Assembly: GCA_014686905.1 (NCBI GenBank) | Contig: GCA_014686905.1_4093.1 | DNA from: a phage | Reading direction: 5' to 3' (one strand) | Length of the DNA: 64,000 nucleotides | Shown: piece by piece, positions 22,981-23,484 of the stretch | How positions within the stretch are numbered: the stretch's first letter is position 1 | Layout of the letters: every line of letters begins with the position of its first letter | Position numbers and translations under genes: made by a program | Notes under the pieces: model-generated | Seen by the model: only the letters and a program-made list of their open reading frames with translations | Told to the model about the DNA's origin: nothing | Databases searched by the model: none

Positions 22981-23484
22981 ATGAAATCTATTATTGCCAA
23001 TAACGAAATCACCGCAAAAACTGTACGTCTTGTTACGGAAGGTGCAAGTGAGGTCATGGCAATCTCTAAAGCACTTACTTTAGCAGAAAATCAAGGATTG
23101 GATTTGGTGGTTATTGGTGCAGGTGATGAACCTGCTGTCAAAATTACAGATCTTAACAAATACAAATATGAGTTGAAGCAAGCTGAAAAGGCTTCTCTTA
23201 AAAAACAACGACAAAATGCCGTGAGTATTAAAGAGATTCAATTCAACTTTGGTACACAAGAGCACGATTTGCAGATTAAAGCAAAAAGTGCTGAAAAATT
23301 CCTTGATGAAGGAAAACATGTACATATTGTAATGAAAACTTCAGGACGTGGAACTAATGCATCAGTAATTCAAGCAAATATTAATGCAATGGAATCATTC
23401 GTTAATCGTTTGGGTAACGTTTCATATGTTCAAAAAGTCGAGTTCCAAGGTAAAAAGGTAACCTGTACTGTCAAAGTAAAATAA
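22981..23484 (+). CDS. translation initiation factor IF-3 homolog
   Basis: Full-length collinear similarity to bacterial InfC: [12 protein letters not shown]...GLDLVVIG...[15 protein letters not shown]...[17 protein letters not shown]...[13 protein letters not shown]. Confidence 0.85.

Follow-up and report, generated by a model that had tools for sequence, protein, structure and literature searches.

It was long assumed that phages depend on their hosts for the core translation factors. Genes for translation initiation factor 3 (IF3) in giant phages are among the clearest exceptions, and one of them is the subject of this analysis: gp165c, at positions 22981–23484 on the plus strand of a 64,000-nucleotide (nt) stretch of phage DNA (GenBank assembly GCA_014686905.1, contig GCA_014686905.1_4093.1). 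The whole of this stretch is called the window here. That the gene is phage-encoded, as an earlier note on the sequence had stated, is borne out by comparison of the window with Escherichia phage vB_EcoM_phAPEC6 (MK817115), to which it is 99.9% identical over 3 kilobases (kb) on the reverse strand of the record. Phage phAPEC6 belongs to the genus Asteriusvirus and has a genome of 352.6 kb. The open reading frame (ORF) at 22981–23484 is phAPEC6 gp165c, labelled “translation initiation factor IF-3” in GenBank.

IF3 genes have been recorded in related phages before. The paper on Pectobacterium phage CBB states that CBB, GAP32, 121Q, PBECO4, and Rak2 carry an IF-3 of their own (PMC5259590), and Iyer et al. 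list IF-3 for group 2.2 jumbo phages (PMC7824862). For huge phages, Al-Shayeb et al. suggested that host translation is intercepted and redirected with the help of phage IF1 and IF3 (PMC7162821), while the paper on phage Sharanji holds that the function of IF3 in phages “cannot be definitively stated” (PMC11895373). Both the gene and the hypothesis of redirected translation, which the earlier note also raised as a possible bias of initiation toward phage mRNAs, are therefore already known from GenBank and several papers. What is added here is the divergence of a functional loop, purifying selection, the conservation of a promoter, the anatomy of an operon, and deep synteny. With gp165c residing in a culturable E. 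coli phage, the redirection hypothesis becomes directly testable in the best-understood translation system.

The AUU start codon of infC, the gene of E. coli IF3, allows the factor to repress its own synthesis. Of the residues with assigned roles, R25, which is invariant, and R66 touch the elbow of the initiator tRNA (PMC9723500). A part in ribosome interaction is ascribed to D106 and K110, binding and dissociation depend on R112, and R131 belongs to an exposed loop in contact with mRNA (PMC3401457). This loop, 129-RFRGR-133, is highly conserved in bacteria, and R131 touches the +2, +3, and +4 bases; the R131P substitution, a swap to KKGK, and the P, F, or Y of mycoplasmas all relax discrimination against non-AUG codons, leaderless mRNAs, and the 3GC-mutant initiator tRNA (PMC11775629). 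Mitochondrial IF3 (IF-3mt, with KKGK) and mycoplasma IF3 (P/F/Y at the R131 position) are natural IF3s with an altered loop, as is gp165c, and are described as relaxing discrimination against non-AUG codons, leaderless mRNAs, or unconventional initiator tRNAs (PMC11775629).

The phage gene encodes 167 amino acids between an ATG start and a TAA stop, with no in-frame start between the preceding stop and this ATG. The ORF was found on the plus strand at 22981–23484 just as the earlier note had it, with every peptide stretch quoted there and with ATG in place of the AUU of infC; its description as a full-length homolog with both IF3 domains is upheld by the agreement of two Pfam domains, the TIGR00168 family, the AlphaFold2 fold, and Foldseek. 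Pfam IF3_N covers residues 7–71 (E 5.8e-16, 58.9 bits against a cut-off of 26.9) and IF3_C residues 81–165 (E 8e-14, 51.8 bits, cut-off 34.8). The NCBIfam equivalog model for infC, TIGR00168, scores 110.4 bits (cut-off 60), and PHROG 9787, “translation initiation factor”, aligns residues 1–167 with positions 1–167 of its 168-position profile (E 6e-71, 238.7 bits). An antisense ORF at 23080–23325 (81 amino acids) lies wholly within the conserved IF3 frame and was taken as spurious.

The AlphaFold2 model, built with 33 homologs in the alignment, has a mean predicted local distance difference test score (pLDDT) of 87.7. It consists of an N-domain at about residues 1–57, a linker helix at 58–79, and a C-domain at 83–167 with the topology beta-alpha-beta-alpha-beta-beta. 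The best solved relatives of gp165c are the IF3s of E. coli and Thermus (E ~1e-17), and the top Foldseek matches are full-length ribosome-bound IF3s: 5lmn_X, with a template modelling (TM) score of 0.70 and an E of 7e-14, and 9ss1, with a TM score of 0.73. Over full-length IF3 structures in general, the TM score of the model ranges from 0.70 to 0.78. E. coli InfC (PDB 8jsg, 5me0) and T. thermophilus IF3 (5lmn) have the same two domains, lysine-rich helical linker, and fold. Like Thermus IF3, gp165c does without the basic tail of 12 residues at the N-terminus of E. coli IF3. Together these results confirm gp165c as an intact, conserved, full-length IF3 homolog.

Most residues to which a role in IF3 has been assigned are present or conservatively replaced. 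E. coli R25, Y75, D106, K110, G132, and R133 are kept in the phage protein as R16, Y63, D96, K100, G122, and R123. R66 becomes K54, a lysine in most IF3s, and four of the eight arginines of the E. coli C-domain are likewise lysine in gp165c (R112 as K102, R116 as K106, R129 as K119, and R168 as K158). The changed residues are Y70 (L58), R99 (N89), Y107 (L97), F130 (T120), R131 (S121), and R147 (S139). Residues that are nearly IF3-wide are also retained, namely, in E. coli numbering, N16, I19, V24, R25, A42, A46, D52, L53, P63, K/R66, D69, K72, Y75, K94, E95, D106, K110, F117, G121, G132, R133, and G167. Within the phage clade, R16, K54, Y63, D96, K100, G122, and R123 are each at least 93% conserved, and they are common to other IF3s. 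The earlier note had named the loss of C-domain ribosome-binding residues as the finding that would speak against an IF3; the outcome is mixed, in that the universally conserved D106, K110, G132, and R133 are kept, whereas R99, R131, and R147 are indeed lost.

IF3 genes were found in 95 phage records. Protein identity to gp165c reaches 100% in 121Q, slurp01, SP27, Sharanji, and others (more than 10 isolates) and 99.4% in PBECO4, and amounts to 52–72% in the Rak2-like phages of Klebsiella, Salmonella, Cronobacter, Pectobacterium, Erwinia, Yersinia, Serratia, and Xanthomonas. The members of this Rak2-like group, which fall in PHROG 9787 and include 121Q gp47, the PBECO4 and Sharanji proteins, RaK2 ORF153, GAP32_313, CBB_318, Munch_344, and XbC2_314, share with gp165c the gene order, promoter position, and ATG start, and show no difference of substance from it. 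At 33–42% identity follow Vibrio phage 2.275.O, Agrobacterium phage Atu_ph07, and several of the LR7565xx huge-phage genomes of Al-Shayeb et al. (2020), all with full-length proteins. The annotated starts of the first two are TTG in 2.275.O (L012, 1483–2004) and GTG in Atu_ph07 (L013, 1492–1995).

Across nine phages the pairwise ratio of nonsynonymous to synonymous substitution rates (dN/dS) of the IF3 gene is 0.08–0.30. It is 0.077 between phAPEC6 and EC.P1, where dS is an unsaturated 0.78, and 0.115 between GAP32 and CBB. The gene is under purifying selection.

A HMMER search of 1.84 billion representative sequences returned 5660 IF3 relatives at E ≤0.001 and only 6 at E ≤1e-30. The nearest relatives that could be placed on contigs, with identities of 51%, 46%, 44%, 42%, 37%, and 37%, all share one gene order (6/6): DHFR, RNase H, and Dda helicase genes, two small genes, IF3, a gene at the ClpS position, KTSC, and topoisomerase II. 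The cultured relatives are arranged alike. A scan of GTDB with one genome per species, limited to one peptide pattern and not exhaustive, found no close bacterial copy, the best bacterial match being 38% identical over a partial alignment. Recent capture from a host was considered and ruled out by the 31% identity of gp165c to E. coli InfC, by these GTDB matches of at most 38% over partial alignments, and by the position of the nearest relatives on phage-like syntenic contigs. The syntenic relatives and the lack of a close bacterial copy in that scan point to the IF3 gene as an old, vertically inherited component of the phage lineage.

Upstream of the gene lies a putative sigma70-type promoter at 22908–22936 (+), TTGACA-17 nt-TATAAT, which matches the consensus at 12 of 12 positions. 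Its −10 hexamer ends 44 nt before the gp165c ATG, and its −35 hexamer includes the TGA stop of the upstream gene gp166c. A Shine-Dalgarno (SD) core, GGAG, is found at 22967–22970 (+), 10 nt before the ATG; GGAG is kept in this place in all 9 Rak2-like relatives and the ATG start in 9/9. The exact promoter on which the earlier note remarked is thus present, but it is not unique in the window. Sites with at most one mismatch to TTGACA-N17-TATAAT number 17, of which 5 are exact, and all are on the plus strand, which is the gene strand; 2.0 ± 1.5 would be expected (100 shuffles, maximum 6). Nine of the 17 sit 30–60 nt upstream of annotated starts. This region of a jumbo phage is densely supplied with host-type consensus promoters, the 17 sites including, for example, those at 9483, 41086, 55171, and 57578 (+).

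When nine phages belonging to several genera are aligned upstream of IF3, the −35 (GCTTGAC) and −10 elements stay in place while the spacer diverges. The match at the aligned position is 12/12 in phAPEC6, EC.P1, Turkey5, Munch, and CBB, 11/12 in Hallingskeid, and 9–10/12 in RaK2, GAP32, and XbC2. On these sequence grounds we take the IF3 promoter to be a genuine one of host type. Expression of gp165c is probably early, as judged from other large lytic phages. A T4-type middle promoter was considered and rejected: TGCTTGA, as a candidate MotA box, overlaps the −35 element, but the 19 nt from it to the −10 do not fit the 11–13 nt that separate the MotA box from the −10 in T4 middle promoters. 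A second near-consensus promoter, TTGACA-17-TATGAT at 22712–22740 (+), coincides in part with the start codon of the small gene gp166c; transcription from this promoter would start within gp166c and continue into IF3.

No plus-strand terminator was found between the IF3 promoter and an intrinsic terminator at 27014–27046 (+), which follows gp161c directly and has a 10-bp stem with 5 G-C pairs followed by 8 T. The predicted transcription unit consequently comprises IF3, gp164c, gp163c, gp162c, and gp161c, such that IF3 would head a five-gene unit ending at a strong terminator. The last two genes, gp162c and gp161c, occupy 24650–27012 (+), and gp162c matches no Pfam family. The setting differs from that of bacterial infC. 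There the gene begins with the autoregulatory AUU and is part of the infC-rpmI-rplT operon with the genes for L35 and L20, whereas gp165c begins with ATG and has ClpS-like and KTSC-domain neighbours.

The reading to which we give a modest preference is that gp165c is an early IF3 paralogue that occupies the IF3 site of the host 30S subunit, separates the ribosomal subunits, and promotes SD/AUG initiation on phage mRNAs. Its proofreading is possibly altered besides. According to this mechanism, host RNA polymerase would transcribe gp165c early from the consensus sigma70 promoter. The C-domain would settle on the platform and P-site face of the 30S subunit via helix H3 (D96, K100, K102, and K106), and the N-domain would contact the elbow of the initiator tRNA with R16 and K54. 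So placed, gp165c would keep the subunits apart and speed the formation of initiation complexes on phage mRNAs, to the presumed benefit of the phage. Because the gene starts with AUG instead of AUU, its level would be set by the phage promoter alone and uncoupled from the feedback on host infC, and gp165c could therefore raise or replace the IF3 activity of the cell during infection. T7 protein kinase phosphorylates initiation factors, and work of the 1970s reportedly claimed a changed specificity of IF3 after T4 infection; phage interference at the initiation step therefore has precedent.

Several points weigh against such an early, initiation-promoting paralogue. The protein is only 31% identical to E. 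coli InfC over its full length (MAFFT), and BLASTP aligns the two at 38% over residues 7–123 (E 2e-18) and leaves the last 44 residues unaligned. Three of the eight C-domain arginines of the E. coli factor (R99, R131, and R147) have no positively charged counterpart, and the RFRGR loop is not conserved, reading KTSGR. As for timing, the promoter type of the IF3 gene is inferred from its sequence only, and in the CBB paper most of the predicted RpoD-like early promoters map to other parts of the genome (PMC5259590). Mass spectrometry detected gp162c and gp161c in the phAPEC6 virion and did not detect gp163c–gp165c (PMC7247149); virion genes in the predicted IF3 unit fit poorly with a purely early unit. 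Full-text literature searches found no experiments on any phage IF3, nor did they find a transcriptome of an Asteriusvirus or Rak2-like phage.

The loop merits separate consideration. K119-T120-S121-G122-R123, encoded at 23335–23349 (+), is the counterpart of E. coli 129-RFRGR-133, with F130 and R131 replaced. Throughout the Rak2-like clade the loop has the form K-x-x-G-R, and the R131 position holds V, A, S, T, I, Q, N, or E in 27/28 clusters, compared with R or K in 119/150 other aligned proteins (79%), these being counts among related sequences with no phylogenetic correction. The IF3s of 11 named bacterial genomes read x-F-(R/K/Y)-G-R-E. Distant huge-phage IF3s vary, with RLHGR, RFKGR, EYKRR, FFKGR, and FFSGR. 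Some syntenic uncultured relatives have also lost G132/R133, such as P0036 (ANR), P0039 (SS), and P0041 (KA), and others, such as P0028, P0040, and P0043, have lysine at the R131 position. The codon-inspecting loop looks unconstrained in the phage lineage, and helix H3 and the N-domain look constrained. A basic residue at the R131 position is typical of IF3 and not universal; its absence qualifies the membership of gp165c in the family and does not exclude it, because mycoplasma and mitochondrial IF3s differ here too. The likeness to these is one of analogy, and gp165c has no terminal extensions.

From this divergence one would predict normal 30S binding with altered proofreading of start sites, and on it is built the first alternative. 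Here gp165c binds the 30S subunit and blocks subunit joining, checks codon–anticodon pairing, leaderless mRNA, or the initiator tRNA less stringently, competes with host IF3, and shifts start sites. The KTSGR sequence, the non-basic residue in nearly the whole clade, and the further decay of G132/R133 in P0036, P0039, and P0041, which suggests that the loop is unconstrained, all lean toward it, as does the relaxed discrimination brought about by R131P, KKGK, and the mycoplasma changes (PMC11775629). We nevertheless regard it as unlikely. Lysine is kept in P0028, P0040, and P0043, and the phage has no visible need of a relaxed factor.

That last point comes from the genes of the region. Among the annotated starts of the 64-kb region, 98/102 are ATG, 3 GTG, and 1 TTG, and an SD-like motif precedes 87/102, as counted on the sequence of record MK817115 with the gene calls of its depositors, which are biased toward ATG and SD. 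Unusual starts or leaderless genes, for which a relaxed IF3 would be needed, were looked for and not found among these 102 annotated genes. The promoters that adjoin genes leave leaders of 30–60 nt, so that the mRNAs of the nine promoter-adjoining genes would not be leaderless. A phage initiator tRNA paired with the altered IF3 was considered as well and rejected, since the sole tRNA of the window with a CAU anticodon, at 63756–63845, is not initiator-like: G1 pairs with C72, the anticodon stem is GCCGA/UCGGU, and both the C1xA72 mismatch and the three G-C pairs that mark an initiator are absent. In mitochondria and mycoplasmas the use of leaderless mRNAs, non-AUG codons, or altered initiator tRNAs is evident, whereas this is not so in this phage region, which gives no sign of a need for a relaxed IF3. 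The two possibilities differ in what they imply for the host gene: if gp165c proofreads, it should also repress host infC, and if it does not, infC should be derepressed.

A second alternative leaves mRNA choice aside. The extra IF3 would act in anti-association or anti-hibernation, stopping ribosomes from being parked as 70S or 100S particles under stress and thereby sustaining total translation. The helix H3 residues for ribosome binding and dissociation, D96, K100, K102, and K106, are the best conserved of the C-domain (PMC3401457), and the loop that inspects codons looks free to vary. Relatives are reported to encode a protein of the sigma54-modulation/S30EA family, a hibernation factor family (PMC11895373). 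The neighbouring genes are also related to proteostasis: a ClpS-like gene in phAPEC6, and in Atu_ph07 genes for ClpX, a small heat-shock protein, and ClpS. Set against this, the N-domain, which is dispensable for the anti-association activity of the C-domain, is as conserved as the C-domain and includes the tRNA-elbow residue R16. We think this account rather improbable.

Still more doubtful, to the point of being improbable, is a dominant-negative factor or decoy that occupies the IF3 site or titrates a host or defence factor, and that serves host shut-off or defence evasion without promoting initiation. The 31% identity to host IF3 and the three absent C-domain arginines could be expected of such a protein, and phiKZ proteins are reported to target host ribosomes early, in work that a passage of the Sharanji paper cites (PMC11895373). 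Yet a pure blocker needs neither two conserved domains with their linker nor residues that are invariant across IF3, and it would hit the phage's own SD/AUG mRNAs. For the defence branch, we know of no defence system that targets IF3. The view of gp165c as a decaying, non-functional remnant of a captured host gene can be dismissed as very improbable, since nothing beyond the low identity to E. coli IF3 favours it and it is contradicted by a frame intact in every relative, a dN/dS of 0.08–0.3, an identical protein in more than 10 isolates, a conserved promoter and SD, and a confident structure prediction, while the pattern-limited GTDB-species scan, with no close copy, argues against recent capture.

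The gene that follows IF3, 14 nt after its stop, is gp164c at 23498–24043 (+), which encodes 181 amino acids with a match to Pfam ClpS just above the threshold (2e-05, 24.7 bits against a cut-off of 23). The ClpS domain occupies residues 74–144 only, and the approximately 70-residue N-terminal extension matches no family; E. coli ClpS has about 106 amino acids. ClpS is annotated at the position of gp164c in relatives, the gene at this position comes directly after IF3 in the Rak2-like relatives, and it scores as Pfam ClpS in 4/6 of the uncultured contigs. Next is gp163c at 24115–24660 (+), a KTSC-domain protein of 181 amino acids (Pfam KTSC, 6.5e-14) that is syntenic in all relatives examined.

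The order IF3-ClpS-KTSC holds in relatives down to 37% identity. In Vibrio phage 2.275.O (L012, 1483–3286) the order is helicase-x-x-IF3-ClpS-KTSC with a gene for ribosomal protein S21 between IF3 and ClpS, which speaks for the small ribosomal subunit as the place where the phage factor would act. In Atu_ph07 (L013) a ClpX-type ATPase gene is directly upstream of IF3, and genes for a small heat-shock protein and ClpS lie within ~4 kb downstream. The IF3 copy of LR756511 differs in having neither ClpS nor KTSC neighbours. The repeated association of IF3 with Clp genes may reflect a shared ancestry of gene order or a functional link.

A broader and rather speculative proposal, which we consider unlikely as a whole, joins these elements. 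The Rak2-like lineage would possess an ancient, vertically inherited IF3-ClpS-KTSC operon for ribosome and proteostasis functions, to which S21 has been added in the Vibrio relative. Its IF3, minus the arginine of RFRGR and altered in proofreading, would outcompete host IF3, be immune to infC feedback, and reprogram the choice of start sites or mRNAs, while the ClpS-like partner would act on host Clp in the same takeover.

Genes of virion proteins are found on both sides of the IF3, ClpS-like, and KTSC genes. Upstream of the IF3 block, gp167c (22127–22693, +) also encodes a protein that mass spectrometry found in phAPEC6 virions (PMC7247149). The predicted transcription unit, or at least the gene block, combines genes for virion proteins with those for replication and translation. 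Internal late promoters may exist in the predicted IF3 unit. At the end of the unit, the hairpin at 27014–27038 is a perfect 10-bp palindrome with T-runs on both strands and could serve as a bidirectional terminator between gp161c and the gene for the large subunit of topoisomerase II. After the hairpin, at 27044–27073, is a TG-extended promoter-like site, TTGAGA-18-TACAAT.

The window and MK817115.1 are not strictly collinear, with a constant offset that breaks outside the IF3 region, and for 11/102 annotated phAPEC6 gene starts a 30-nt exact match is missing from the window. The window therefore carries small indels or substitutions relative to the record, or stems from a very closely related phage or a different version of that record.

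Six tRNA genes are clustered at 61265–63922. The tRNA at 63756–63845 (+) with anticodon CAT is annotated as tRNA-Met in relatives and has a long variable arm and a type II shape (87–90 nt), with A73 as discriminator base, CCA encoded at its end, and a T-loop of unusual sequence, UUAGAAU. Phage records that contain it number only 9, among them some of Asteriusvirus, Xanthomonas, and Erwinia phages. The tRNA-Ser gene at 63657–63748 (+) has the anticodon ACT, with an unusual A at wobble position 34. According to PMC11895373, relatives have a gene for a tRNA-specific adenosine deaminase, and such an enzyme might convert A34 of this tRNA-Ser to inosine.

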